Source: Escherichia coli
Lineage (GTDB): Bacteria > Pseudomonadota > Gammaproteobacteria > Enterobacterales > Enterobacteriaceae
Direction: 5' to 3' (one strand)
Length of the DNA stretch: 12,968 bases
Assembly (NCBI RefSeq): GCF_003334355.1
Contig: NZ_QOWP01000052.1
A program made the translations under genes and the position numbers. This document shows positions 1 to 12,968 of this stretch, one piece after another. How positions within the stretch are numbered: the stretch's first letter is position 1; the number at the start of each line of letters is the position of its first letter. The notes beneath the pieces were generated by a model, which had not been told where the DNA came from, did not search any database, and saw only the letters and a program-made list of their open reading frames with translations.

Positions 1-125
1 TGCAGTTGCCATGTTTTACGGCAGTGAGAGCAGAGATAGCGCTGATGTCCGGCAGTGCTTTTGCCGTTACGCACCACGCCTTCAGTAGCGGAGCAGGAAG
101 GACATCTGATGGAAATGGAAGCCAC
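1..125 (-). CDS. insA: IS1 InsA (transposition repressor / N-terminal transposase part), 5' portion only; partial at window edge
   Basis: Minus-strand translation from GTG (complement of 123-125) gives [42 protein letters not shown], the InsA zinc-finger N-terminus (CxxC...CxxC), recalled from memory. The gene runs off the window start. Confidence 0.8.
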
Positions 126-180
126 GCAAGCACCTTAAAATCACCATCATACACTAAATCAGTAAGTTGGCAGCATTACC
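1..180 (-). mobile_element. IS1 insertion sequence, left (IRL/insA) end; element continues beyond the window start
   Basis: Reverse complement of 1-180 reads GGTAATGCTGCCAACTTACTGATTTAGTGTATGATGGTG... (the IS1 left inverted repeat) followed by the insA start and coding sequence. The terminal inverted repeat maps to 158-180, with the element boundary at 180/181. Confidence 0.9.
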
Positions 181-691
181 CGCCAATATATCCGCCGCCC
201 AAAATACCTAAATGCCCAGGCAATTCTTTTAGATTAAGTAATCCGGTGCTGTCATATACTCCTGGCGTGGTGGTAATTCCAGGAATTGGCGGAACCACGG
301 TTTGTGCACCGGTATTAATAAAAATTTTCTCGCCATGAATTTCCAGATTTGCCTCAGGCCGATGAACACGCAGGCTATGATTATTGATAAACTCCGCCTG
401 GCCGTCGATCACGTCGATATTGGGCATATCCGCAAGATTATGAAAATTCTTATTACGTAAAAAATTAACCACTTCATTTTTACGCTGTATGGCTCGGACA
501 AAATCTGTGTGCTGCTGTGCGTCATGAACCAATGTTTTGGTTGGGATGCAGCCGATATTAATACAGGTCCCGCCATACATTGCATTTGATTGTTCGATGA
601 GAGCCACACGCCAACCTGCTTTTGCCAGCGTGACGGCTAATGTTTTTCCAGCCTTGCCAAAACCAATAATCACTGCCTGATATTTATTCAT
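176..691 (-). pseudogene. rclA: rclA/ykgC (FAD-dependent pyridine nucleotide-disulfide oxidoreductase) truncated by the IS1 insertion; only about 171 N-terminal codons remain
   Basis: Translation from ATG (complement of 689-691) gives MNKYQAVIIGFGKAGKTLAV...GGTCINIGCIPTK...GILGGGYIGG, then a stop immediately inside the IS1 IRL. An AGGAAA Shine-Dalgarno sits upstream. The Rossmann GxGxxG motif and the redox-active CxxxxC are present, but the C-terminal ~60% of this ~440-aa family is absent. The upstream in-frame ATG at 718 is probably not the true start. Confidence 0.8.
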
Positions 692-916
692 GATGATTTC
701 CTGTCGAAACGCGTTCATTTTACATCATGACTATAGACGCAAAAGAGCAAATAACATTTCTTCACAACGCTTGATATTTTGTCTTATCGTCTGGTATTTT
801 CTTTTTCTTAATCAGAATCACAAAACAAAAATCATGATTAACTATTTGATGGTATTAGATTAGTTATTTACTAAGATTGTTGGTGTTTGTAATCAAAAAC
901 CACTCAGGAGTCTGAT
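692..916. promoter_or_regulatory. Divergent rclA-rclR intergenic promoter region (AT-rich)
   Basis: A 225-bp AT-rich spacer lies between divergently oriented start codons. By established knowledge RclR acts on the rclA promoter in this interval. Individual -10/-35 elements were not confidently placed by eye. Confidence 0.45.
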
Positions 917-1771
917 ATGGATGCCCTTAGCCGTTTGTTGATGCTTAACGCTCCACAAGGAACGATCGATAAGAATTGCGTGTTAGGAAGTGACTGGCAG
1001 CTTCCACATGGTGCCGGGGAATTATCGGTTATTCGTTGGCATGCGTTAACGCAAGGAGCGGCGAAGCTGGAAATGCCGACGGGGGAGATTTTTACATTAC
1101 GCCCGGGAAATGTGGTCCTGCTACCACAAAATTCAGCCCATCGCCTGAGTCATGTCGATAATGAATCAACCTGTATTGTCTGCGGCACTCTTCGGCTGCA
1201 ACATTCGGCGCGTTATTTTTTAACGTCTTTGCCGGAAACGCTGTTTTTAGCACCGGTTAACCACAGCGTAGAATATAACTGGCTGAGGGAGGCGATCCCG
1301 TTTTTACAACAGGAATCCAGATTGGCAATGCCGGGAGTGGATGCACTGTGTAGCCAGATCTGCGCTACATTCTTTACCCTCGCGGTGCGTGAGTGGATTG
1401 CACAGGTTAATACTGAGAAAAACATTCTCAGTTTGCTTCTGCATCCACGTCTTGGTGCGGTAATACAGCAAATGTTGGAAATGCCAGGACACGCCTGGAC
1501 CGTCGAATCGCTGGCCAGCATCGCCCACATGTCCCGGGCAAGTTTTGCCCAGCTTTTCCGTGATGTTTCCGGAACCACGCCGCTGGCTGTATTAACAAAG
1601 TTGCGTCTACAAATAGCGGCCCAGATGTTTTCCCGGGAAACGCTCCCTGTTGTGGTGATCGCTGAGTCAGTAGGCTATGCCAGTGAATCATCTTTTCACA
1701 AGGCGTTTGTCCGCGAGTTTGGTTGTACCCCGGGAGAATATCGGGAAAGGGTCAGACAGCTTGCACCCTGA
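917..1771 (+). CDS. rclR: AraC-family transcriptional activator RclR (reactive chlorine-responsive regulator; YkgD)
   Basis: 284-aa ORF with an AGGAG Shine-Dalgarno 6 nt upstream of the ATG. The C-terminal sequence shows the AraC helix-turn-helix signature (...SFAQLFRDVSGTTPLAVLTKLRLQIAAQMF...VGYASESSFHKAFVREFGCTPGEYR). The N-terminal domain carries cysteines, consistent with RclR. Position is divergent from rclA. Confidence 0.9.
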   Translation: MDALSRLLMLNAPQGTIDKNCVLGSDWQLPHGAGELSVIRWHALTQGAAKLEMPTGEIFTLRPGNVVLLPQNSAHRLSHVDNESTCIVCGTLRLQHSARYFLTSLPETLFLAPVNHSVEYNWLREAIPFLQQESRLAMPGVDALCSQICATFFTLAVREWIAQVNTEKNILSLLLHPRLGAVIQQMLEMPGHAWTVESLASIAHMSRASFAQLFRDVSGTTPLAVLTKLRLQIAAQMFSRETLPVVVIAESVGYASESSFHKAFVREFGCTPGEYRERVRQLAP

Positions 1772-2296
1772 ATAAAACCGCCAGAAATCAGGGCAAAGAT
1801 AATCCGCATTCCGGGAGTTGTGAGCCTTTCAACTATTTCTATTTCCAACGGTGGTTTGGGCTTTATATATTTTTTCTGATGGACTCTAGCTCAGTTTTTA
1901 AATAAAAATGCAAACTAAATTGCTTCAATTAAATAAAATCCCGACTATTACTTGATACGTGATTATTGTCGGTGATTTTTTTGTACACCATCAGTGTATA
2001 TCTCAATAACCCCTGAATAAGTAGCTCTGAATAGGTATAAGGGATGTAGCCATTTTTAAATGGATTTCTTATGCCAAAAATGATCGTCGATTTCCCCATA
2101 AAATGTGAGCGATGCCGAAAGAAATAAAATTAGTTATTGCATTTGACGTTTGGATGAAAGATTATCATTTGTCATACAAATGAGGGGTGGTATGTTGCTA
2201 GCCAATTAAAAAGAACGCCATATTTATTGATGATTGATCCCCCGGTGGGGGGGAAACATCGGGCATAAATGGGCATGAAGTAATGGAGTATTAGTT

Positions 2297-3016
2297 GTGA
2301 ATGTCAATTTCTTTGTCACCTGTATTGGTGACGCCCTGAAATCAAGAATGGCACGAGACTCCGTGCTGCTACTGGAAAAACTCGGCTGTCGCGTAAATTT
2401 CCCGGAGAAACAGGGATGCTGCGGTCAGCCTGCGATCAATAGCGGTTATATCAAAGAAGCGATTCCAGGGATGAAAAATCTGATCGCCGCACTGGAGGAT
2501 AACGACGATCCCATTATTTCACCGGCTGGCTCTTGCACCTATGCCGTAAAAAGTTACCCGACGTATCTGGCGGATGAACCTGAATGGGCATCACGTGCCG
2601 AAAAGGTTGCCGCGCGTATGCAGGATCTCACCTCTTTTATTGTTAATAAATTAGGGGTAGTCGATGTAGGTGCCAGTTTGCAAGGGAGAGCTGTGTATCA
2701 CCCATCTTGTAGCCTGGCCCGTAAGCTGGGAGTGAAGGACGAGCCACTTACGCTGCTGAAAAATGTGCGTGGACTGGAGCTGTTGACCTTTGCTGAACAG
2801 GATACCTGCTGCGGATTTGGCGGCACGTTCTCGGTCAAAATGGCCGAAATATCCGGCGAGATGGTGAAAGAAAAGGTTGTGCACCTGATGGAAGTCCGCC
2901 CTGAGTATTTAATTGGTGCTGACGTGAGTTGCCTGCTGAACATCAGTGGGCGATTACAACGGGAAGGGCAGAAAGTCAAAGTGATGCATATTGCTGAAGT
3001 GTTGATGAGCCGCTGA
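2297..3016 (+). CDS. ykgE: LutA-like Fe-S oxidoreductase subunit (cysteine-rich CCG-domain protein) YkgE
   Basis: 239-aa ORF starting at GTG 2297, with GGAG 7 nt upstream. It carries cysteine-rich motifs (CCGQP, CCGFGG) typical of LutA/GlpC-type CCG domains. It is the first gene of a tightly packed three-gene operon. Confidence 0.88.
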   Translation: MNVNFFVTCIGDALKSRMARDSVLLLEKLGCRVNFPEKQGCCGQPAINSGYIKEAIPGMKNLIAALEDNDDPIISPAGSCTYAVKSYPTYLADEPEWASRAEKVAARMQDLTSFIVNKLGVVDVGASLQGRAVYHPSCSLARKLGVKDEPLTLLKNVRGLELLTFAEQDTCCGFGGTFSVKMAEISGEMVKEKVVHLMEVRPEYLIGADVSCLLNISGRLQREGQKVKVMHIAEVLMSR

Positions 3017-3026
3017 GGATATAAAG

Positions 3027-4454
3027 ATGTCGATCAAAACCAGTAATACAGATTTTAAGACACGCATCCGTCAGCAAATTGAAGATCCGATCATGCGCAA
3101 AGCGGTGGCAAACGCGCAGCAGCGTATTGGGGCAAATCGGCAAAAAATGGTCGATGAATTGGGGCACTGGGAGGAGTGGCGCGATCGGGCCGCCCAGATA
3201 CGTGATCATGTTCTGAGTAATCTCGACGCTTATCTGTACCAGCTCTCAGAAAAAGTGACGCAAAACGGCGGTCACGTCTATTTTGCAAGAACCAAAGAAG
3301 ACGCTACCCGCTACATTTTACAGGTTGCCCAACGCAAAAATGCCCGGAAGGTGGTGAAATCTAAATCGATGGTGACCGAAGAGATTGGTGTCAATCATGT
3401 GTTGCAGGATGCTGGCATTCAGGTGATTGAAACCGATCTGGGTGAATATATTCTCCAGCTGGATCAAGATCCGCCATCTCATGTTGTGGTCCCGGCAATT
3501 CATAAAGATCGCCATCAGATCCGTCGAGTGCTACACGAACGTCTGGGCTATGAGGGGCCGGAAACGCCTGAAGCGATGACCTTATTCATCCGGCAAAAAA
3601 TCCGCGAAGATTTCCTCAGTGCTGAAATAGGTATTACCGGCTGTAATTTCGCGGTGGCAGAGACCGGTTCGGTATGCCTGGTGACCAATGAAGGTAATGC
3701 GCGAATGTGTACCACGCTGCCTAAAACGCATATTGCAGTGATGGGAATGGAGCGTATTGCCCCCACGTTTGCCGAGGTAGATGTATTGATCACCATGCTG
3801 GCGCGCAGTGCCGTTGGTGCACGTTTGACGGGATACAACACCTGGCTGACAGGACCGCGCGAAGCTGGGCACGTTGATGGTCCTGAAGAGTTTCATCTGG
3901 TTATTGTCGATAACGGGCGTTCTGAGGTGCTGGCCTCTGAATTTCGGGATGTGCTGCGCTGTATTCGCTGCGGGGCTTGTATGAATACTTGTCCGGCATA
4001 TCGCCATATTGGCGGTCATGGATATGGCTCTATTTATCCAGGGCCAATTGGTGCGGTGATTTCTCCGCTACTTGGCGGCTATAAAGATTTTAAAGATTTA
4101 CCCTACGCCTGCTCTTTATGCACAGCTTGTGACAACGTGTGTCCGGTGCGTATTCCGCTGTCAAAACTGATTTTGCGTCATCGTCGGGTGATGGCTGAAA
4201 AAGGGATCACCGCAAAAGCAGAGCAACGGGCGATAAAAATGTTCGCTTATGCCAATAGTCATCCAGGATTGTGGAAAGTCGGGATGATGGCCGGTGCTCA
4301 TGCGGCAAGCTGGTTTATCAATGGCGGCAAAACACCACTCAAATTTGGCGCGATTAGCGACTGGATGGAAGCACGCGATCTTCCTGAAGCTGACGGAGAG
4401 AGTTTCCGTAGTTGGTTTAAGAAACATCAGGCGCAGGAGAAAAAGAATGGATAA
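3027..4454 (+). CDS. ykgF: LutB-like iron-sulfur protein with two 4Fe-4S ferredoxin motifs, YkgF
   Basis: 475-aa ORF beginning 10 bp after the ykgE stop. It contains two ferredoxin-type clusters, CIRCGACMNTCP and CSLCTACDNVCP. Confidence 0.9.
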   Translation: MSIKTSNTDFKTRIRQQIEDPIMRKAVANAQQRIGANRQKMVDELGHWEEWRDRAAQIRDHVLSNLDAYLYQLSEKVTQNGGHVYFARTKEDATRYILQVAQRKNARKVVKSKSMVTEEIGVNHVLQDAGIQVIETDLGEYILQLDQDPPSHVVVPAIHKDRHQIRRVLHERLGYEGPETPEAMTLFIRQKIREDFLSAEIGITGCNFAVAETGSVCLVTNEGNARMCTTLPKTHIAVMGMERIAPTFAEVDVLITMLARSAVGARLTGYNTWLTGPREAGHVDGPEEFHLVIVDNGRSEVLASEFRDVLRCIRCGACMNTCPAYRHIGGHGYGSIYPGPIGAVISPLLGGYKDFKDLPYACSLCTACDNVCPVRIPLSKLILRHRRVMAEKGITAKAEQRAIKMFAYANSHPGLWKVGMMAGAHAASWFINGGKTPLKFGAISDWMEARDLPEADGESFRSWFKKHQAQEKKNG

Positions 4455-5142
4455 TCGAGGCGAATTTTTGAATAACGTTGCTCAGGCACTGGGTCGCCCG
4501 CTGCGACTTGAACCGCAAGCAGAAGATGCGCCGCTTAACAACTATGCTAACGAGCGGCTTACCCAACTTAACCAACAGCAGCGCTGTGACGCGTTTATTC
4601 AGTTTGCCAGCGATGTTATGTTGACGCGCTGTGAGCTGACCAGCGAGGCGAAGGCGGCAGAAGCTGCAATACGTCTGTGTAAAGAGCTGGGAGATCAGTC
4701 GGTCGTGATTAGCGGTGACACGAGGCTGGAGGAATTGGGGATTAGCGAACGTTTGCAGCAGGAATGCAATGCCGTTGTTTGGGATCCGGCGAAAGGTGCC
4801 GAGAATATCTCGCAGGCAGAGCAGGCTAAAGTGGGTGTTGTGTATGCTGAATATGGTTTAACCGAATCGGGAGGCGTGGTTCTTTTTTCCGCCGCCGAGC
4901 GCGGGCGTTCATTGAGCCTGCTCCCGGAATATTCTCTTTTTATCCTGCGTAAAAGCACTATCCTGCCGCGTGTAGCGCAACTCGCAGAAAAATTGCATCA
5001 GAAAGCGCAGGCCGGTGAACGAATGCCTTCCTGCATTAACATCATTAGCGGCCCCAGTTCAACGGCGGATATTGAGCTTATCAAAGTCGTCGGAGTTCAT
5101 GGCCCGGTGAAAGCGGTGTATCTGATTATTGAGGATTGTTGA
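4447..5142 (+). CDS. ykgG: LutC-like protein YkgG (third subunit of the LutABC-type complex)
   Basis: The ATG at 4447 lies inside the sequence AAGAATGGATAA, overlapping the ykgF stop by 8 nt, which indicates translational coupling. The product begins MDNRGEFLNNVAQALGRP... and is 231 aa. The longer track ORF from 4294 is an in-frame upstream extension inside ykgF. Confidence 0.85.
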   Translation: MDNRGEFLNNVAQALGRPLRLEPQAEDAPLNNYANERLTQLNQQQRCDAFIQFASDVMLTRCELTSEAKAAEAAIRLCKELGDQSVVISGDTRLEELGISERLQQECNAVVWDPAKGAENISQAEQAKVGVVYAEYGLTESGGVVLFSAAERGRSLSLLPEYSLFILRKSTILPRVAQLAEKLHQKAQAGERMPSCINIISGPSSTADIELIKVVGVHGPVKAVYLIIEDC

Positions 5143-5248
5143 GAGAGATATGAAGTCTGGACATAAACCTGAAGAAGGCATACGAGGTTGAAAATAGCGT
5201 TTAGGACAACCTGACTTAACCCCGTTCCGTCATGGTTATGCTGCTCTT

Positions 5249-5289
5249 CTGTAAATATCCTGGTATTACCAATGCCAGGATATTTACAG
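5249..5289. repeat. Perfect 15-bp inverted repeat (CTGTAAATATCCTGG / CCAGGATATTTACAG) with an 11-nt loop, in the convergent ykgG-ykgH intergenic region
   Basis: Read directly from the sequence: left arm 5249-5263, right arm 5275-5289. It could act as a bidirectional terminator or a protein-binding palindrome, but no U-tract follows on either strand. Confidence 0.6.
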
Positions 5290-5384
5290 TGAAAAAGACA
5301 GGCATCCATTCCTGAAAACGGGTTCCCTTCCCGGTCATTGTCACTTCAGCTTTATACAGGCACTCTCTATCAAAATGTTGTTTA

Positions 5385-6053
5385 TTACTGCCCAGAGTTT
5401 TGTTGGTATTCATCTACCATTTTTTTGACAAGGCAAAACATTACAGAAATTACAATGCTTAGAAAAAATCCCAGAGCCAGGCAAATGGCAGCAGGGTATT
5501 TATTTTTTATTTCTGGTGAGCTTATAGTTACACAGCCATCACCGTTCGGATACAATGACCAGTTCCTGGTCAGGTATATCATTTTTGTATAAAGCTCACT
5601 GTTAATTGCTGAAGGCGTTTGTATCTCATCGAGAACTTGCCTGCCATTATGATATTCTGACGCATACCATTTGATAATAGAGGCCTGCACGCGAGATATT
5701 TCCTCTTCAGCAGTTGGTAAAGCTCTCTTATCTCCTGACCATTCCAGCCTTATTTCTCTGTTCTTGACATCTGGGCTGGTGTGAAAAAATGTAGTAATTC
5801 GCTGAATAACATCTTCAGTCATTGTAGTCTGACAGGCAAAATTATTATTGCTATCACAGCTAACAAGTATACCTGGCGTTGTCTGGTTTATTTTTAGGCT
5901 GTAAATCACTTTTATATTGTCTTTATTGATATACAGAAACAACAGCACCATAGCCATACATATAGCCATAATAAAAAGGATAACACGAATCTTTTTCTTC
6001 AGATAAAATAAAATCTCAATCAGATCGATATCCTGTTTGATTTGTTCACGCAT
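5385..6053 (-). CDS. ykgH: Predicted inner-membrane protein YkgH
   Basis: 222-aa ORF with a single strongly hydrophobic N-proximal segment (ILFIMAICMAMVLLFLYI) followed by a hydrophilic domain. It is convergent with ykgG and matches the K-12 gene order. Confidence 0.75.
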   Translation of the reverse strand: MREQIKQDIDLIEILFYLKKKIRVILFIMAICMAMVLLFLYINKDNIKVIYSLKINQTTPGILVSCDSNNNFACQTTMTEDVIQRITTFFHTSPDVKNREIRLEWSGDKRALPTAEEEISRVQASIIKWYASEYHNGRQVLDEIQTPSAINSELYTKMIYLTRNWSLYPNGDGCVTISSPEIKNKYPAAICLALGFFLSIVISVMFCLVKKMVDEYQQNSGQ

Positions 6054-6265
6054 AATATATCCAGAGAATAAAATCTGTCGCAGATAAGGTTGTATTAATA
6101 GTCTGTATCAGGAATGTTCGGGTTAAATATCAGCAAAAAGCCCGCATCATGAATACTGGATATGAAGCATGAGAGTTACCTCAGTGTTTATATAAGGATT
6201 CGGTCCCCCTCTCTGGAACGGTAACTCTCAATCTGATCGGTTCCTGCGTTAGTTCACATCACGAC

Positions 6266-7936
6266 TCATTTTTTCGCTCTCACCGGCATCCCATTTGCCA
6301 CAAAATATCCCGTCGTGCTCCTCGGCAGCGCTTCCTGTCCACGAATCATATCCGCTATTTTCTCGCCAATCATAATTGTCGTGGCGTTCAAATTCCCGGT
6401 GATAATCTGCGGCATAATCGACGCATCCACCACACGCAGGCCTTCTAACCCGTGTACGCGGCCTTCGCCGTCAACCACGGACATCTCGTCGTAACCCATT
6501 TTGCAGGTACCGCACGGATGGAAGGCGGTTTCGGCGTGGTTACGCACGAACTCATCGAGCTGTTCATCCGTCTGGCATTCGACACCGGGGCTGATTTCGC
6601 GGCCACGATACTGATCCAGCGCGGGTTGATGCATGATCTCGCGGGTGATGCGAATTGCGTCGCGGAACTCCTGCCAGTCCTGCTCGTGCGACATGTAGTT
6701 AAACAGAATCGCCGGATGCTGGTGCGGGTCGCGGGATTTAATCCGCACATGCCCACGGCTTGGCGAGCGCATTGAGCCGACGTGGCACTGGAAACCGTGC
6801 TCTTTCACTGCATTCGAGCCGTTATAGTTAATCGCTACTGGCAGGAAATGGTACTGAATATTCGGCCACGCAAATTCCTCACGGCTGCGAATAAATCCAC
6901 CTGCTTCAAAGTGGTTGCTGGTTCCAACGCCAGTGCCGCCAAACAGCCACTCCGCACCGATTTTCGGCTGGTTCCACCACTGCAGGGCAGGGTAGAGGGA
7001 AACCGGTTCTTTGCACTCATATTGCAGATACATCTCCAGATGATCCTGAAGATTTTCGCCGACGCCGGGTAATTCATGCACCAGCGGAATATCAAACTCC
7101 GCCAGCAGTTCAGCGTTGCCGACGCCGGAGCGTTGCAGGATCTGCGGTGAGGCAATCGCGCCTGCACATAACAGCACTTCTTTGTTGGCCGTTGCGCGGG
7201 TTGGGATGGTGCTGTCGCCTTCCAGCCATTCGACGCCCACCGCGCGTTTGCCGTCAAAAATGATGTGATCGGTCATAGCGTGAGTACGAATGGTCAGGTT
7301 AGGACGCGATTTGGCCTGATCGAGATAGCCACGCGCGGTGCTGGCGCGACGGCCCTGCGGCGTGACGGTGCGATCCATCGGACCAAAACCTTCCTGCTGA
7401 TAACCGTTGAGATCGTCCGTGCGCGGGTAGCCCGCCTGCACGCCCGCTTCAATCATCGCTTCAAACAGCGGATTGACGCCGGGTTTGGAGGTAGTGACGC
7501 TCACCGGGCCATCACCGCCGTGATAGTCGTTTTCACCCATATCGCGAGTCTCGGCCTTGCGGTAGTAGGGCAGGCAGTCGAGGTAGCTCCAGTTCTCCAG
7601 ACCGGGTTCTTGCGCCCAGTTATCGAGATCCAGCGCATTGCCACGGATGTAGCACATGCCGTTGATCAGCGACGATCCACCCAGACCTTTACCGCGTCCG
7701 CACTCCATGCGGCGGTTATTCATAAACGGTTCAGGTTCCGTTTCATAGGCCCAGTTGTAGCGTTTACCCTGTAGCGGGAATGCCAGGGCAGCGGGCATCT
7801 GGGTGCGGAAGTCAAAGCGATAGTCCGGGCCGCCCGCTTCAAGCAGCAGCACGGAGGTATTCGGATCTTCAGTCAGACGGGTAGCGAGAACGTTGCCGGC
7901 TGAGCCGGCACCAATAATGATGTAGTCAAATTGCAA
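6266..7936 (-). CDS. betA: Choline dehydrogenase BetA (GMC oxidoreductase, FAD-dependent)
   Basis: The product starts (M)[20 protein letters not shown]..., with the FAD-binding GxGxxG motif. The start is a TTG (complement of 7934-7936) lying 5 nt downstream of a perfect AGGAGG. The track ORF to 7981 over-extends upstream into betB. Confidence 0.9.
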
Positions 7937-7949
7937 ATAAACCTCCTGG

Positions 7950-9422
7950 TTAGAATATGGACTGGAATTTAGCCATCTCAACCTGGATGGACTTCACCTG
8001 GGTGTAACTCTGGAGCGTCATCACGCCGTTCTCGCGACCAATGCCGGAGTGTTTGTAGCCGCCAACGGGCATCTCTGCCGGGGATTCGCCCCAGGTGTTG
8101 ATCCAGCAAATACCCGCTTCCAGCTGATGAATGACGCGATGCGCGCGGTTCAGGTCCGCTGTCACGATGCCCGCCGCCAGGCCGTAGTCGGTATCGTTAG
8201 CGCGGCGAATGACTTCGTCTTCCGACTCGTAGGTCAGAATGGACATCACTGGCCCGAAGATCTCTTCACGCACGATGGTCATATCGTCGCTGCAATCGGT
8301 GAACACTGTCGGTGCAACCCATGCGCCGTTATCGAAGCCATCGCCTTTCAGTACATCGCCGCCGCACAGTACGCGCGCGCCTTCCTCTTTGCCTTTGGCG
8401 ATATAGCGCAGCACGTTATCGCGATGCGGGAAGCTGACCAGCGGGCCGAAGTTAGTTTGCGGATCGAAAACGTCGCCCGCGCGAATGCGCTCAACGCGCG
8501 CCAGAATTTTCTGCTCAAATGCGGCTTTGCATTTCGCCGGAACGAAGACGCGGGTGCCATTGGTACACACCTGACCGGAGCTGAAGAAGTTTGCCATCAT
8601 GGCGATATCGGCGGCGAGATCGAGATCCGCATCATCGAAAACGATCAGCGGTGATTTACCGCCCAGTTCCATGGTCACTTCTTTCAGGGAAGAGGCCGCC
8701 GAGTTAGCCATCACTTTTTTGCCGCTGGCGACACCGCCGGTAAATGACACTTTGGCAATGCCCGGATGCTCGGTCAGATATTGCCCGGTCTCCGCGCCCA
8801 CGCCCGGCAACACGTTAAATACGCCGTCCGGCAGGCCCGCTTCGCTGTAAATTTCAGCCAGCTTTAACGCGGTAAGCGGGGTAACTTCGCTCGGTTTGAA
8901 AATCATTGCGTTGCCTGCCGTCAGCGCCGGGGCGGATTTCCACAGGGCAATCTGGATCGGGTAGTTCCATGCGCCAATCCCTGCCACTACGCCCAGCGGT
9001 TCGCGGCGGGTATACACAAAGGACGTTTCACGCAACGGGATCTGGCTGCCTTCCAGCGCCGGGATCAGCCCGGCGTAGTACTCCAGCACGTCCGCACCGG
9101 TAACGATATCGACGGTTGAGGTTTCCGAATATGCTTTTCCGGTGTCGAGGGTTTCCAGTTTTGCGAGTTCGTCATTGCGTTCACGCAGAATATCAACGGC
9201 CCGACGCAGAATACGCGAGCGCTCCATGGCGGTCATCGACGCCCAGATTTTTTGCCCCTGCTGGGCGCTTTTCACGGCGCGATCGACATCCTCGCGCCCG
9301 GCGGCCTGCACGGTCGCCAGCACGTTACCGTTGGCCGGGTTAATGGTCTCGAAGGTGCGACCGCTGGTGGCGGAGGTATAACCACCATGTATATAAAGCT
9401 GCTGTTCTGCCATTCGGGACAT
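7950..9422 (-). CDS. betB: Betaine-aldehyde dehydrogenase BetB (NAD-dependent ALDH family)
   Basis: 490-aa product [15 protein letters not shown]..., with the catalytic ALDH motifs (...ELGGKSP..., ...[13 protein letters not shown]...). The ATG (complement of 9420-9422) is preceded by a GAGGAG Shine-Dalgarno. The gene ends 13 bp upstream of the betA start. Confidence 0.9.
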
Positions 9423-9435
9423 CACGTCTCCTCGG

Positions 9436-10023
9436 TTAATCGGTGGGTAGATGCTGAGTGATAAAGTGGCGGGTCAGGGAATTAGCGCGGGTTTTATCCA
9501 GCGGTTTGCCGCTCAGAGCCGCGCGCAGCCATAATCCATCAATCAGCGCGGCCAGGCCGTAGCCCGCTTCCTGTGCCTGTTCGCGCGGCAATTCGCGACG
9601 AAACTCGCTCACCAGATTCGACAGCAAGCGGCGGCTGCTGACCTGCTGTAAACGATAGAGCATCGGCTGATGCATACTGCTGGCCCAGAACGCCAGCCAG
9701 GCTTTCATCGCCGCACTGCTCACCTGCGTTTCATCGAAGTTTCCGCCAACAATCGCCTGTAATCGCTGCTCTGCACTGCCCTGCGGAAGTGCATGTAATC
9801 GATTCAAAACCGCGTCACGCAGCTGACTGGTGATATCGCGCATGGTTGCTTCCAGCAGACCATTTTTGTCCCTGAAATAGTGGCTGATGATCCCCGTAGA
9901 AACGCCTGCACGGCGGGCGATCTGCGCGATCGTTGCATCGTGCATGCCCACTTCATTTATTGCTTCCAGTGTGGCGTCGATCAGTTGTCTGCGCCGGATC
10001 GACTGCATCCCCAATTTGGGCAT
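9436..10023 (-). CDS. betI: TetR-family choline-responsive repressor BetI
   Basis: 195-aa product [50 protein letters not shown]..., with an N-terminal TetR helix-turn-helix. The track ORF begins 6 codons upstream at 10041. The start at 10023 is preferred because it has a GGAG 7-10 nt upstream and matches the length I recall for this family. Confidence 0.85.
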
Positions 10024-10151
10024 TTTCGCCACTCCATTCATCAGCGGTGTTTATCTATTAAAGCGGTTATTGATTGGACGTTCAATATAAAATGTGTCTT
10101 AATTGTTACGAATTTGATTTTAAATAGTAACAATAACAGTGGGGATACTGG
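10024..10151. promoter_or_regulatory. Divergent betI / betT promoter-operator region, including an imperfect dyad TTATTGATTGGACGTTCAATATAA (10067-10090)
   Basis: A 128-bp AT-rich spacer lies between the divergent starts. It contains the half-sites ATTGGAC / GTTCAAT in inverted orientation, typical of a TetR-family operator. By established knowledge BetI binds a dyad in this interval. Confidence 0.6.
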
Positions 10152-12185
10152 ATGACAGACCTTTCACACAGCAGGGAAAAGGACAAAATCAATCCGGTGG
10201 TGTTTTACACCTCCGCCGGACTGATTTTGTTGTTTTCCCTGACAACGATCCTGTTTCGCGACTTCTCGGCCCTGTGGATTGGCCGCACGCTGGACTGGGT
10301 TTCTAAAACCTTCGGTTGGTACTATCTGCTGGCGGCAACGCTCTATATTGTCTTTGTGGTCTGTATCGCTTGTTCGCGTTTTGGTTCGGTGAAGCTCGGG
10401 CCAGAACAATCCAAACCGGAATTCAGCCTGCTGAGTTGGGCGGCGATGCTGTTTGCTGCCGGGATCGGTATCGACCTGATGTTCTTCTCCGTAGCCGAAC
10501 CGGTAACGCAGTATATGCAGCCGCCGGAAGGCGCGGGACAGACGATTGAGGCCGCGCGTCAGGCGATGGTCTGGACGCTGTTTCACTACGGCTTAACCGG
10601 CTGGTCGATGTATGCGCTGATGGGCATGGCGCTCGGATACTTTAGCTATCGTTATAATTTGCCGCTCACCATCCGCTCGGCGCTGTACCCGATCTTCGGT
10701 AAACGGATTAACGGGCCGATAGGTCACTCAGTGGATATTGCAGCGGTGATCGGCACTATCTTCGGTATTGCCACTACGCTCGGTATCGGTGTGGTGCAGC
10801 TTAACTATGGCTTGAGCGTACTGTTTGATATTCCCGATTCGATGGCGGCAAAAGCGGCACTGATCGCCTTGTCGGTGATCATCGCCACTATCTCGGTGAC
10901 ATCCGGTGTCGATAAGGGCATTCGCGTGTTATCGGAGCTTAATGTCGCGCTGGCGCTGGGATTGATCCTGTTCGTGTTGTTTATGGGCGACACTTCGTTC
11001 CTGCTTAATGCACTGGTGCTGAATGTTGGCGACTATGTGAATCGCTTTATGGGCATGACGCTCAACAGTTTTGCCTTCGACCGTCCAGTTGAGTGGATGA
11101 ATAACTGGACGCTCTTCTTCTGGGCATGGTGGGTGGCATGGTCGCCGTTTGTCGGCTTGTTCCTGGCGCGTATCTCGCGTGGGCGTACCATTCGCCAGTT
11201 CGTGCTGGGCACGTTGATTATTCCGTTTACCTTCACGCTGTTATGGCTCTCGGTGTTCGGCAATAGCGCGCTGTATGAAATCATCCACGGCGGCGCGGCA
11301 TTTGCCGAGGAAGCGATGGTCCATCCGGAGCGCGGCTTCTACAGCCTGCTGGCGCAGTATCCGGCGTTTACCTTTAGCGCCTCCGTCGCCACCATTACTG
11401 GCCTGCTGTTTTATGTGACCTCGGCGGACTCCGGGGCGCTGGTGCTGGGGAATTTCACCTCGCAGCTTAAAGATATCAACAGCGACGCCCCCGGCTGGCT
11501 GCGCGTCTTCTGGTCGGTGGCGATTGGCCTGCTGACGCTCGGCATGCTGATGACTAACGGGATATCCGCGCTGCAAAACACCACGGTGATTATGGGGCTG
11601 CCGTTCAGCTTTGTGATCTTCTTCGTGATGGCGGGGTTGTATAAATCTCTGAAGGTAGAAGATTACCGCCGTGAAAGTGCCAACCGCGATACCGCACCGC
11701 GACCGCTGGGGCTTCAGGATCGCCTGAGCTGGAAAAAACGTCTCTCGCGCCTGATGAATTATCCGGGCACGCGTTACACTAAACAGATGATGGAGACGGT
11801 CTGTTACCCGGCAATGGAAGAAGTGGCGCAGGAGTTGCGGTTGCGCGGCGCGTACGTGGAGCTAAAAAGCCTGCCACCGGAAGAGGGACAGCAGTTGGGT
11901 CATCTGGATTTGTTGGTGCATATGGGCGAAGAGCAAAACTTTGTCTATCAGATTTGGCCGCAGCAATATTCGGTGCCGGGCTTTACCTACCGCGCACGCA
12001 GCGGTAAATCGACCTACTACCGGCTGGAAACCTTCCTGTTAGAAGGCAGCCAGGGCAACGACCTGATGGACTACAGCAAAGAGCAGGTGATCACCGATAT
12101 TCTTGACCAGTACGAGCGGCACCTTAACTTTATTCATCTCCATCGTGAAGCGCCGGGCCATAGCGTGATGTTCCCGGACGCGTGA
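10152..12185 (+). CDS. betT: High-affinity choline transporter BetT (BCCT family)
   Basis: 677-aa ORF with multiple hydrophobic transmembrane segments and a tryptophan-rich BCCT signature region (...WTLFFWAWWVAWSPFVGLFLARISRGRTIRQF...). A long hydrophilic C-terminal tail follows. Confidence 0.92.
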   Translation: MTDLSHSREKDKINPVVFYTSAGLILLFSLTTILFRDFSALWIGRTLDWVSKTFGWYYLLAATLYIVFVVCIACSRFGSVKLGPEQSKPEFSLLSWAAMLFAAGIGIDLMFFSVAEPVTQYMQPPEGAGQTIEAARQAMVWTLFHYGLTGWSMYALMGMALGYFSYRYNLPLTIRSALYPIFGKRINGPIGHSVDIAAVIGTIFGIATTLGIGVVQLNYGLSVLFDIPDSMAAKAALIALSVIIATISVTSGVDKGIRVLSELNVALALGLILFVLFMGDTSFLLNALVLNVGDYVNRFMGMTLNSFAFDRPVEWMNNWTLFFWAWWVAWSPFVGLFLARISRGRTIRQFVLGTLIIPFTFTLLWLSVFGNSALYEIIHGGAAFAEEAMVHPERGFYSLLAQYPAFTFSASVATITGLLFYVTSADSGALVLGNFTSQLKDINSDAPGWLRVFWSVAIGLLTLGMLMTNGISALQNTTVIMGLPFSFVIFFVMAGLYKSLKVEDYRRESANRDTAPRPLGLQDRLSWKKRLSRLMNYPGTRYTKQMMETVCYPAMEEVAQELRLRGAYVELKSLPPEEGQQLGHLDLLVHMGEEQNFVYQIWPQQYSVPGFTYRARSGKSTYYRLETFLLEGSQGNDLMDYSKEQVITDILDQYERHLNFIHLHREAPGHSVMFPDA

Positions 12186-12197
12186 TTGTTATTGCAT

Positions 12198-12234
12198 AAA
12201 ACAGCGCCATGTCTGCATATGGCGCTGTTTCTCC
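12198..12234 (+). terminator. Putative rho-independent terminator of betT
   Basis: The hairpin AAACAGCGCCAT-(gtctgcat)-ATGGCGCTGTTT starts 13 bp after the betT stop and is followed by TTTCTCC. The stem is GC-rich and perfect over 12 bp. Confidence 0.6.
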
Positions 12235-12891
12235 TACCTCTTGATACGTTATATCTATACGGTTAAGCCCTTAGTATCTATTGATGATTACCAGACAACA
12301 GATAATAAAAAAGAAAAGAACTATTGCAGCCCAAAACCTACATTTGGGCTGTTGCGAATGTTCAATAAGTTTAGTCTTATTTAATGTAAATATTGCTGAT
12401 CATTTGAAATGACGCATTATTCATGAGAAATGTGTATCGTAAATCAACTGAAATTAACGCAACCATTTGTTATTTAAGGTTTAATTATCTGTGTGTGATA
12501 TTTTATTGAATGTTTTAAATATTGTTTTTATTGGCATTGCTATAATATTGGTTATCATTTGCTGAATGGATTCAGTCTTAATGAGTGGGTTTTTAAGGGA
12601 CAGGCATAGAGTAATGATACGTATGCATAACCAACATCTTTACTCATTATGTCATTGAATGTTGACGCTATGTGTTTATGAGGGAGAGGTATTTTCAGTT
12701 GATCTGGATTGTTAAATTCATATAATGCGCCTTTGCTCATGAATGGATGCCAGTATGTAGTGGGGAATTATAAATATTGAAATAGTCCAACTACTTCTTT
12801 ATTACCAAAAATGAGTATCTGAATTTTAATATTGCATTCTTGCGTGATTATCTCCTGAGTTTGACTTGTGATTACCTTTTTAAGGTATTTA

Positions 12892-12968
12892 GGTAATGAC
12901 TCCAACTTATTGATAGTGTTTTATGTTCAGATAATGCCCGATGACTTTGTCATGCAGCTCCACCGATT
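12892..12968 (-). mobile_element. IS1 insertion sequence, right (IRR/insB 3') end; element continues beyond the window end
   Basis: 12892-12968 reads GGTAATGACTCCAACTTATTGATAGTGTTTTATGTTCAGATAATGCCCGATGACTTTGTCATGCAGCTCCACCGATT, which is the IS1 IRR read inward. It has the same orientation as the copy at 1-180. Confidence 0.9.
12907..12968 (-). CDS. insB: IS1 InsB (transposase) C-terminal end; partial at window edge
   Basis: Minus-strand translation gives ...SVELHDKVIGHYLNIKHYQ*, with the TAA stop (complement of 12907-12909) lying inside the terminal inverted repeat, as in IS1. Confidence 0.7.
   Translation of the reverse strand, partial: SVELHDKVIGHYLNIKHYQ

Follow-up and report, generated by a model that had tools for sequence, protein, structure and literature searches.

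Does a stretch of Escherichia coli DNA that ends inside the insertion sequence IS1 on both sides contain a defense system or mobile cargo, or is it ordinary chromosome? The whole stretch that we analyzed, 12,968 nt in length, is called the window below. The first-pass annotation claimed that it holds no novel multi-gene defense or mobile cargo system and that its content is limited to conserved housekeeping and stress loci. This claim was upheld by searches with PADLOC, NCBIfam, and Pfam, which gave no credible match to a defense or toxin family. We conclude with high confidence that the window carries no defense system, toxin-antitoxin pair, CRISPR array, integrase, or novel cargo. It is also very likely that the window is a known stretch of the E. 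coli chromosome, devoted to chlorine stress, lactate use, and glycine-betaine osmoprotection, which has been cut by IS1 at both ends. Its content is known biology. The negative finding can be considered properly closed: a window of 13 kb can be dismissed as a known segment with no concealed defense or cargo system. This is a small matter for discovery, and the by-products described below are modest.

We compared the window to the complete genomes of E. coli. It is colinear with K-12 MG1655 (99.74% nucleotide identity over 181–12896) and with strain PSS-12 (99.93% identity over 1–12896; NZ_AP027697.1). At least 80% of its length is shared by 4992 of the 5426 complete E. coli genomes, so that it ranks as soft-core chromosome of the species. 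The window would represent a native chromosomal piece located at ~319.5–332.2 kb in K-12 coordinates. It contains a truncated rclA gene, rclR, ykgEFG, ykgH, betABI, betT, and yahV (Table 1). Gene order and orientation are as in K-12 (b0305–b0314 and b4730; NC_000913.3, ~320.2–331.9 kb), with all ORFs of this range at full length. The predicted functions are those of RclR, the LutABC-like YkgEFG, YkgH, the betIBA-betT regulon, and the small membrane protein YahV, and would all belong to housekeeping and stress response. The window differs from K-12 by 31 substitutions and a 1-nt deletion in an A-run at position 2207. K-12 has an intact rclABC operon and IS1 on neither side, whereas the window has one IS1 in rclA and one IS1 168 nt upstream of pdeL. 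Strain PSS-12 carries the same fdeC-IS1-rclA' allele, with an identical IS1/rclA junction (100% over 200 nt), but lacks IS1 upstream of pdeL. The window and PSS-12 are separated by 7 substitutions and 1 indel, which include changes at residue 339 of BetA and residue 73 of YkgG. In all likelihood, the source of the window is a close relative of PSS-12.

Table 1. Features of the window with their positions, strand, and supporting evidence.
Feature	Position	Strand	Evidence
IS1 fragment, IRL end	1–180	-	100% identical to PSS-12 IS1 (L001 4589–4768)
rclA remnant, codons 1–170 of 441 of reactive-chlorine-resistance flavoprotein RclA	181–691	-	NCBIfam NF040477
rclR, AraC-family reactive-chlorine-specific activator	917–1771	+	NF040475, 555 bits vs cut-off 400; K-12 b0305
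rclR-ykgE intergenic region, AT-rich, ~37% GC	1772–2296		Composition; K-12 annotates nothing
ykgE, LutA-like Fe-S oxidoreductase subunit	2297–3016	+	NCBIfam; K-12 b0306
ykgF, LutB/LldF L-lactate oxidation iron-sulfur protein	3027–4454	+	TIGR00273, 779 bits vs cut-off 445
ykgG, LutC-like, LUD domain	4447–5142	+	Pfam LUD_dom PF02589, 5.5e-30; K-12 b0308
Inverted repeat, 19 nt, 3-nt loop, 95% complementary	5249–5289		Repeat search; between convergent ykgG and ykgH
ykgH, inner-membrane protein, 222 aa, two transmembrane helices, PCP-like fold	5385–6053	-	Low-GC region
betA, choline dehydrogenase (GMC oxidoreductase)	6266–7936	-	TIGR01810, 1035 bits
betB, betaine-aldehyde dehydrogenase (ALDH)	7950–9422	-	NF009725, 916 bits
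betI, TetR-family choline-responsive repressor	9436–10023	-	NF001978, 307 bits
betT, BCCT choline transporter	10152–12185	+	NF007399, 1315 bits
yahV, known 24-aa single-helix membrane protein MCDILLNVLNIVFIGIAIILVIIC	12491–12565	+	K-12 b4730; PMC9976479
Near-invariant stretch ahead of pdeL that reaches up to the site of IS1 insertion	12779–12891		Alignment and K-12 mapping
IS1 fragment, IRR end, 77 nt	12892–12968	-	100% identical to PSS-12 IS1 IRR end (L001 4001–4077)

The AraC, GMC, ALDH, TetR, and BCCT families named in the first-pass annotation were all found above the curated cut-offs of NCBIfam; of its LutABC-like genes, YkgF scored above the LutB/LldF cut-off and YkgG was recognized by its Pfam LUD domain. 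The inventory was incomplete: it omitted the RclA remnant (residues 1–170 of 441), YkgH, and the 24-aa YahV. The IS1 that it listed among the ORF families is present, but as two terminal fragments only and not as an ORF-bearing element. The rclA remnant covers positions 1–170 of 441 of profile NF040477, with 314 bits against a cut-off of 740. Its frame, truncated by IS1, enters the element and reaches a stop at 176–178, and the corresponding stretch of PSS-12 is listed as a pseudogene. A complete reactive chlorine response would comprise the regulator RclR and a divergent, intact rclABC operon; here RclR is intact, RclA is cut, and the window holds neither rclB nor rclC. The rclR gene is intact and its target operon is lost. 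The genotype of this strain is one in which the RclABC hypochlorite-resistance operon is lost and RclR is left as an orphan regulator.

The next three genes are adjacent and encode an Fe-S protein with CCG domains, a LutB/LldF protein, and a LUD-domain protein, which identifies a predicted LutABC/YkgEFG lactate-utilization set. YkgE matched the C-terminal part of LdhH in NCBIfam (4.8e-54), as well as the Fe-S proteins GlcF and GlpC. The Bet regulon is complete: BetA, BetB, BetI, and BetT all score above curated cut-offs, and betT and betIBA are divergent as in K-12. Between the convergent genes ykgG and ykgH, the inverted repeat is probably a bidirectional terminator. The 3' UTR of ykgH was proposed as an sRNA candidate from RIL-seq, unverified by northern blotting (PMC8175672), and we observed that the inverted repeat falls in this 3' UTR.

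Contrary to the claim that every long ORF is accounted for by a well-known family, ykgH was not listed and its product belongs to no curated family. The NCBIfam search gave no match for YkgH, and its Pfam matches were below threshold (Wzz, PF02706, i-Evalue of 0.0025; GNVR, PF13807, 0.56). A profile search of the PDB recovered WzzB (6rbg; E = 0.0015), with an alignment limited to the N-terminal transmembrane region, and a homologue with 27% identity has a precomputed match to GNVR. The best full-length structural matches of YkgH are Wzc, WzzB, and KpsE. YkgH shares with the polysaccharide co-polymerase (PCP) family (Wzz, the periplasmic domain of Wzc, and KpsE) the N- and C-terminal transmembrane helices and the periplasmic alpha/beta base domain that they enclose. 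Unlike this family, YkgH is only 222 aa long, lacks the long periplasmic helical extension, and does not reach the Pfam and NCBIfam thresholds. The structural matches indicate that YkgH presents a minimal polysaccharide co-polymerase fold of the Wzz/Wzc/KpsE type, which gives this uncharacterized protein a place in a structural class. No polysaccharide gene cluster (Wzx/Wzy, ABC-transporter, or synthase) was found beside ykgH, whose neighbors are ykgG and betA. Relatives of YkgH in an index of 5.8 billion proteins were restricted to Escherichia, and an exhaustive search of representatives added a handful of enterobacterial homologues with 21–29% identity. Distant homologues have as neighbors either an autotransporter gene or csiD-gabDTP together with PapB-like genes, and these contexts provided no functional clue.

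We then considered whether any part of the window resembles a defense, toxin, or mobile element. The 10 main proteins presented no credible match in PADLOC. Two trivial matches were set aside as generic similarity of sub-domains: the 38-residue Rossmann N-terminus of the truncated RclA to a desaturase model (E = 0.0019) and a 22-residue stretch of the BetI HTH to mad1 (E = 0.00078). The profile searches gave no match to integrase, recombinase, or toxin-antitoxin families, and neither the repeat search nor TRF revealed a CRISPR-like or tandem array, defined for CRISPR as at least three regularly spaced direct repeats of 24–48 nt. Only chance matches in two or three copies and four 2-copy micro-repeats were observed. 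The absence of CRISPR repeats, of integrase or recombinase genes, and of toxin-antitoxin pairs was thus confirmed within the reach of these repeat and profile searches. A scan of the window for tRNA and tmRNA returned nothing, and no Rfam family reached its gathering score. The sole Rfam match at E ≤ 1, to mir-338 at 1927–1987, was attributed to chance (24.9 bits, whereas the gathering score is 57). Consensus scans for promoters and terminators yielded barely more than expected from shuffled sequences and were set aside as evidence.

The two large intergenic regions could still conceal small genes. Their boundaries had been given exactly: the first lies between the stop of rclR at 1771 and the start of ykgE at 2297, the second between the stop of betT at 12185 and the start of IS1 at 12892. 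The check that the first-pass annotation had proposed, a search of all ORFs of at least 30 aa in 1772–2296 and 12186–12891, was run on 10 ORFs and gave no PADLOC or NCBIfam match even at E ≤ 10, hence none to a defense or toxin family. This outcome agrees with the claim, but the chosen length would miss yahV (24 aa), the one real small gene in 12186–12891. We extended the search to shorter sequences. The other 18 intergenic ORFs of at least 20 aa were negative in NCBIfam, and the 10 of these tested against PADLOC had no match at E ≤ 10. All 28 ORFs, concatenated with short linkers, were also scanned with Pfam, which returned no match at this same permissive cut-off. None of the 28 ORFs has an NCBIfam or Pfam match that would indicate a toxin-antitoxin pair. 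These searches cover the described families of PADLOC-DB v2, NCBIfam, and Pfam, and a truly novel small peptide would be beyond their reach.

Conservation across strains was also informative. Most of the 28 ORFs are disrupted in divergent lineages of E. coli. In 1772–2296, no conserved small gene was found: the ORFs have no family match, and in other lineages indels or the loss of the start codon disrupt most of them. The yahV ORF is intact in all eight E. coli haplotypes compared. Could YahV, or another intergenic ORF, be a type I toxin-like or defense-related peptide? YahV is hydrophobic and resembles small membrane toxins in size and composition (PMC9976479), and an antisense ORF (12481–12558) overlaps its gene. 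The ORF at 12709–12780 is a second candidate, whose substitutions between lineages fall mostly at third codon positions. However, no toxin or defense family of NCBIfam, Pfam, or PADLOC matched YahV or the other candidates, 7 of the 24 residues of YahV change between lineages, and the start codon of the antisense ORF is lost in strain KE47. The ORF at 12709–12780 loses its stop codon in 3 of the 8 haplotypes and contains a TGC codon that varies to CGT or CAT. A hidden toxin or defense peptide is thus extremely unlikely. We considered the same ORF as a conserved upstream ORF, and we do not claim it given the stop codons lost in these three haplotypes and the one hypervariable codon.

The remaining signal is IS1 itself. 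The first-pass annotation regarded IS1 as the only accessory signal, which stands, with the nuance that two directly oriented copies bracket the whole 12.7 kb in the anatomy of a composite transposon. IS1 elements end in terminal inverted repeats of ~23 bp (GGTRATG...CCAACTTAYTGAT), and both fragments carry them and are 100% identical to the ends of the annotated 768-bp IS1 of PSS-12. On the left, the repeat GGTAATGCTGCCAACTTACTGAT is the reverse complement of 158–180, and the fragment encodes the first 41 codons of InsA (125 down to 3), with a match above cut-off to the N-terminal IS1/IS1595 zinc-binding domain of InsA/InsAB' (NCBIfam NF050000; 3e-11). The remainder of this element, including the rest of the InsA gene, lies past the left edge of the window. 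On the right, the IRR end carries GGTAATGACTCCAACTTATTGAT (12892–12914), and the element is oriented as the left copy and runs on past the right edge. That the window ends inside IS1 on both sides most probably reflects a multi-copy repeat that breaks the assembly or defines the contig.

Two separate IS1 events would bound the segment. The left IS1 lies inside rclA at codon 170. This exact IS1/rclA junction was found in a single genome of the 5426, that of PSS-12, where the 9-nt flanks of the element are different (gtatgaaag and cgccaatat), which indicates an IS1-associated deletion. Because the IS1 of PSS-12 abuts fdeC without target-site duplication, the rest of rclA and the rclB, rclC, and ykgA/ykgQ region were likely deleted by IS1. 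The right IS1, in the same orientation, is inserted 168 nt upstream of pdeL. Insertion of both copies in situ would predict fdeC as the outer neighbor of the left IS1 and, past the right IS1, a 9-bp duplication (about AGGTATTTA) and then pdeL. We consider it highly probable that both copies are simple chromosomal insertions; since the DNA past both fragments is outside the window, this reading rests on the comparison with other strains.

Two other scenarios can be weighed against simple insertions. In Tn9, two directly oriented IS1 flank the cargo, and the window presents the same bracket (1–180 and 12892–12968). Together with the two IS1, the 12.7-kb segment could therefore function as a composite transposon of the Tn9 type, or as a translocatable unit, with the bet and lut genes as mobile cargo. 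The shared orientation of both ends, which bracket the whole segment, is as this would predict, and strain H7 independently acquired IS1 in rclC and in pdeL, again in one orientation. Part of the locus has even been mobilized by IS1 before: in ~250 resistance plasmids, a complete rclA is preceded by an IS1 located 54 bp before the start of the gene. However, no copy of the IS1-bracketed segment was found in 72,556 plasmids, and the phage records (50,697) contained no match to the segment. Plasmid matches over the full length came from K-12 F-prime plasmids, from chromosome-like records, and from a single 68-kb record that lacks IS1 and keeps the native neighbors, ecp-fdeC at one end and pdeL-yah at the opposite end. 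Unlike Tn9, the cargo is native chromosome at its native locus, and the outer ends and any 8–9-bp target duplication are outside the window. Both inner junctions are in native chromosomal context, and the left one is the chromosomal junction of PSS-12, which has no duplication. The anatomy of a composite transposon is present, with a Tn9-like bracket, and we found no sign of movement; that the unit is functional is most unlikely.

Alternatively, both ends of the window could belong to a single IS1, the segment being an IS1-joined circle or a tandem amplification and the window its repeat unit opened within IS1. The right end (IS1 positions 768 down to 692) followed by the left end (180 down to 1) would be consistent with one element in one orientation, and each fragment matches its respective end of the single PSS-12 copy at 100% identity. 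Yet the 77-nt IRR end is identical across thousands of IS1 copies, so this identity is uninformative here. In addition, independent IS1 insertions upstream of pdeL are common, and an excised circle would not persist. We consider this scenario very unlikely and retain two simple insertions as the preferred reading.

The region upstream of pdeL was further analyzed. Mapped to K-12, the site of insertion precedes the start codon of pdeL by 168 nt. The block that ends there contains one real variable column of 113 (a second listed column, 12891, corresponds to end-of-alignment overhang), whereas variable columns represent 11–23% of most other parts of the intergenic region and 5% of 12619–12734. 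The exact right junction was found in none of the 5426 complete E. coli genomes searched. Among the 21 genomes with at least 80% coverage of the junction query, about 17 have an IS1 in the same orientation nearby, at about six other positions; by offsets deduced from hit spans, these range from 26 bp to the left to 448 bp to the right of the site of the window. In strain LD27-1 (71% coverage of the query), IS1 is located 45 bp to the left. These positions point to independent insertions in a hotspot. The by-products are a strain genotype with IS1 in the control region of pdeL and the recognition of this region as a recurrent target of IS1. Our literature search found no coordinates for the transcription start of pdeL against which to place IS1 relative to the promoter, and a putative Cra-like palindrome at 12563–12574 is therefore a lead only.

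Finally, IS1 upstream of pdeL might not be neutral. It could act as a natural switch that resets the expression of PdeL and thereby c-di-GMP level, motility, and sensitivity to phage N4, and the paired IS1 might in addition make the 12.7-kb bet/lut segment prone to deletion or amplification through recombination; we regard this as an unlikely, speculative possibility. In this reading, IS1 interrupts a near-invariant regulatory block of pdeL, which H-NS silences and which Cra and PdeL itself activate. Counting LD27-1, about 18 other complete genomes carry a same-orientation IS1 in this vicinity, at about seven other positions. The situation can be likened to the IS insertions upstream of bgl or flhDC.

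We found at least 80% of the window in 4,992 of the 5,426 complete E. coli genomes (megablast, whole window). By local alignment, it is colinear with K-12 MG1655 (NC_000913.3) over positions 181-12896 (99.74% identity) and with strain PSS-12 (NZ_AP027697.1) over positions 1-12896 (99.93% identity). The gene map was based on the annotations of K-12 and PSS-12 and on NCBIfam and Pfam family searches, and the ORFs of rclR, ykgE, ykgF, ykgG, betA, betB, betI and betT are equal in length to those of K-12. All the content has already been described: the bet regulon, ykgEFG (LutABC homologues), RclR, YahV (PMC9976479) and IS1. The first-pass annotation had interpreted the window as lacking any novel defence system or mobile cargo. 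Our results support this interpretation, but its inventory needed four corrections.

Features of the window, with family matches where available
Feature	Position	Strand	Remarks
IS1 fragment	1-180		
rclA remnant	181-691	minus	
rclR	917-1771		RclR above curated NCBIfam cut-off
ykgE	2297-3016		matches Fe-S CCG-type oxidoreductase subunits
ykgF	3027-4454		YkgF above curated NCBIfam cut-off
ykgG	4447-5142		LUD domain, 5.5e-30
ykgH	5385-6053	minus	no NCBIfam family, sub-threshold Pfam only
betA	6266-7936	minus	BetA above curated NCBIfam cut-off
betB	7950-9422	minus	BetB above curated NCBIfam cut-off
betI	9436-10023	minus	BetI above curated NCBIfam cut-off
betT	10152-12185		BetT above curated NCBIfam cut-off
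yahV	12491-12565		24 codons
IS1 fragment	12892-12968		77 nt

IS1, named as the only accessory signal, is indeed present, but as two terminal fragments only, and the window contains no complete transposase gene. Each fragment matches one end of a single annotated 768-bp IS1 of PSS-12 (L001 4001-4768) with 100% identity. Both have the same orientation, and a 12,711-bp segment is therefore bracketed by direct IS1 repeats. Composite transposons such as Tn9 carry their cargo between direct IS1 copies, and the bracket of the window has a like anatomy. In the plasmid collection, the full segment was found only in K-12 F-prime plasmids, in mislabelled chromosome-size records and in one 68-kb record, where it is present with its native flanks and without IS1. 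Strain H7 carries IS1A in rclC and inside pdeL, the gene to the right of the window, both in the orientation seen in the window (L012 744-16873). Since these sites differ from those of the window, IS1 bracketing of this segment arose more than once. Two independent in-situ IS1 events are the simplest reading, and the window probably stops inside IS1 because assemblies break at this repeat. The window might also represent the unit of a single-IS1 circle or of a tandem array, a reading that nothing specifically favours. The pair of IS1 junctions is strain-specific and of a familiar kind.

The left IS1 fragment comprises the IRL repeat and InsA codons 1-41. A 180-codon ORF (176-718, minus strand), omitted from the first inventory, encodes the N-terminus of RclA (residues 1-170, profile positions 1-170 of 441) and runs into IS1. 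The exact uninterrupted IS1/rclA junction was found in a single genome of the 5,426, that of PSS-12, where IS1 starts 17 bp past the fdeC stop codon (L001 3960-4800). The 9-nt sequences flanking this IS1 are unlike each other (gtatgaaag vs cgccaatat), which indicates an IS1-associated deletion. This deletion took rclB, rclC, the ykgA/ykgQ region and what was left of rclA. RclR has thus become an orphan regulator without its target operon, and the RclABC hypochlorite response should be lost in the strain of the window. Separately, resistance plasmids of E. coli, Salmonella, Klebsiella, Shigella and Citrobacter, about 250 in all, carry full-length rclA with 97.5-98.4% identity to its chromosomal counterpart, so plasmids have picked up part of the locus. 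The plasmid homology ends 54 bp upstream of the start codon, and in pGD31-F1928, the sole plasmid examined at this boundary, the break lies at IS1 with IS26 nearby (L004 5186-7317; L005 1429-2809).

The right fragment begins with IRR. In K-12 coordinates, its insertion point precedes the pdeL start codon by 168 nt (L002 20150-20380). This exact junction has no counterpart among the 5,426 complete genomes. Among the 21 genomes with a coverage of the junction query of 80% or more, about 17 have a same-orientation IS1 close to this site, at offsets of approximately -26, +42, +59, +82, +188 and +448 bp (inferred from hit spans; +448 was checked in strain H7). An additional genome, LD27-1 (71% query coverage), presents IS1 at about -45 bp. 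With about 18 other genomes showing IS1 at about seven other positions (-45 to +448 bp), all in the same orientation, the region upstream of pdeL constitutes an IS1 hotspot. The insertion of the window ends a 113-nt block (12779-12891) with one variable column among eight haplotypes; elsewhere in the betT-IS1 intergenic region, variable columns mostly represent 11-23% of positions, and 5% in 12619-12734. The pdeL gene is silenced by H-NS and activated by Cra and by PdeL itself (bioRxiv 10.1101/2021.10.01.462762), and the PdeL protein confers protection from phage N4 (PMC8669472). It is tempting to speculate that recurrent IS1 insertions in the conserved control region of pdeL, a gene outside the window, are adaptive.

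A Cra-type palindrome, TGAATGGATTCA, is located at 12563-12574, with one mismatch to TGAAWCGWTTCA, and overlaps the yahV stop codon. A Cra box has been reported in the promoter region of pdeL and may be this palindrome, in which case IS1 would separate the control region from the pdeL coding sequence. A plus-strand ORF at 12709-12780 contains 23 codons, or 13 from an internal ATG. Its lineage substitutions are clustered and mostly affect the third base of a codon (6 of 7 in KE47); however, three haplotypes have CGA in place of the stop codon, and one codon is found as TGC, CGT or CAT. This candidate may or may not be a translated upstream ORF of pdeL.

The two large intergenic gaps, 1772-2296 and 12186-12891, had been delimited exactly, and a search of their ORFs of at least 30 aa had been proposed. 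These ten ORFs gave no match to PADLOC (an anti-phage defence HMM set) or NCBIfam, even at E ≤ 10. That threshold misses yahV, the sole genuine small gene in 12186-12891. We extended the list to 28 mainly intergenic ORFs over six gaps (ATG/GTG/TTG starts, at least 20 aa). The remaining 18 were all negative with NCBIfam, as were the ten of them searched with PADLOC. All 28 joined by five-residue linkers gave nothing in Pfam at E ≤ 10; since HMMER aligns domains locally, every ORF was nonetheless assessed individually. The alleles of K-12, pMTY18781-4 (98.2% identity), KE47 (96.6%) and RHB23-SO-C02 (98.4%) were then compared. Most of the 28 ORFs are broken in at least one of these four alleles by frameshifting indels, lost starts or premature stops, and the survivors overlap real genes or show about as many residue changes as nucleotide changes. 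The yahV ORF is intact in all eight aligned haplotypes, with 7 of its 24 residues varying between lineages. No small intergenic ORF matched a defence or toxin family in these searches.

The other reported absences were confirmed. The repeat search of the window revealed no regularly spaced repeat family that would indicate a CRISPR, just four two-copy micro-repeats, and no family search detected an integrase, a toxin, an antitoxin or a recombinase beyond IS1. For the ten main proteins, PADLOC yielded only two marginal sub-domain matches, one to a Rossmann N-terminus and one to an HTH stretch of 22 residues. Scans of the window identified no tRNA or tmRNA, no Rfam family at gathering score (a chance miRNA match only at E ≤ 1) and no match to phage records.

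The statement that every long ORF belongs to a well-known family is untrue as written, because ykgH (222 aa) was unlisted and has no NCBIfam hit, with Pfam sub-threshold. A word-indexed search retrieved relatives among Escherichia proteins only; a few more, of full length (211-229 aa, 21-29% identity), emerged when 1.84 billion representatives were searched exhaustively. Their shallow alignment shows a hydrophobic helix at each terminus, a WY motif and nearly invariant C66 and C74. From this alignment, AlphaFold2 produced a confident model (mean pLDDT 85.2, pTM 0.67), whose first 37 Foldseek hits in the PDB are all polysaccharide co-polymerases (PCPs: Wzc, KpsE, WzzE; best E 2.4e-4, query-normalised TM about 0.5). 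In AFDB50, the neighbours come from enterobacteria, are 200-230 aa long and bear the automatic UniProt names [quoted passage not shown] or "Tyrosine kinase G-rich domain-containing". Weak sequence signals were also found: Pfam Wzz (0.0025, sub-threshold), a PDB profile match to WzzB (0.0015) and a GNVR match on a homologue. Together, these structural and weak sequence matches lead us to predict with good confidence that YkgH adopts a minimal PCP-like fold and contains two transmembrane helices; its two conserved cysteines are predicted to be periplasmic. This putative member of the PCP family has no long periplasmic helices, and no polysaccharide locus is linked to ykgH. The gene, officially uncharacterised and mentioned only incidentally in the literature, occupies a stretch of low GC content (36-40%).

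Between the convergent ykgG and ykgH, a 19-nt inverted repeat (5249-5289; 95% complementary, 3-nt loop) falls within the ykgH 3' UTR, which is an Hfq-bound sRNA candidate by RIL-seq that northern blotting did not confirm (PMC8175672). Three variants of the window are private relative to K-12, PSS-12, H7 and LD27-1, and none disrupts a gene: T at 721, the loss of one A from the A-run at 2207 in the rclR-ykgE gap, and at 6922-6923 TT in place of CA, a change that gives Thr at BetA residue 339 (Ala in those four strains). The homology of RHB23-SO-C02 to the window ends at 12225, just past the betT terminator (L015 13507-15046). This position is a lineage-specific replacement point; some E. coli lineages have the autotransporter adhesin gene ehaA after betT instead of yahV-pdeL. 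Finally, many plasmids of Klebsiella, Raoultella and Salmonella harbour a lutABC-like (ykgEFG) operon, whose identity to the chromosomal E. coli genes (window 2275-5143) is about 84%.
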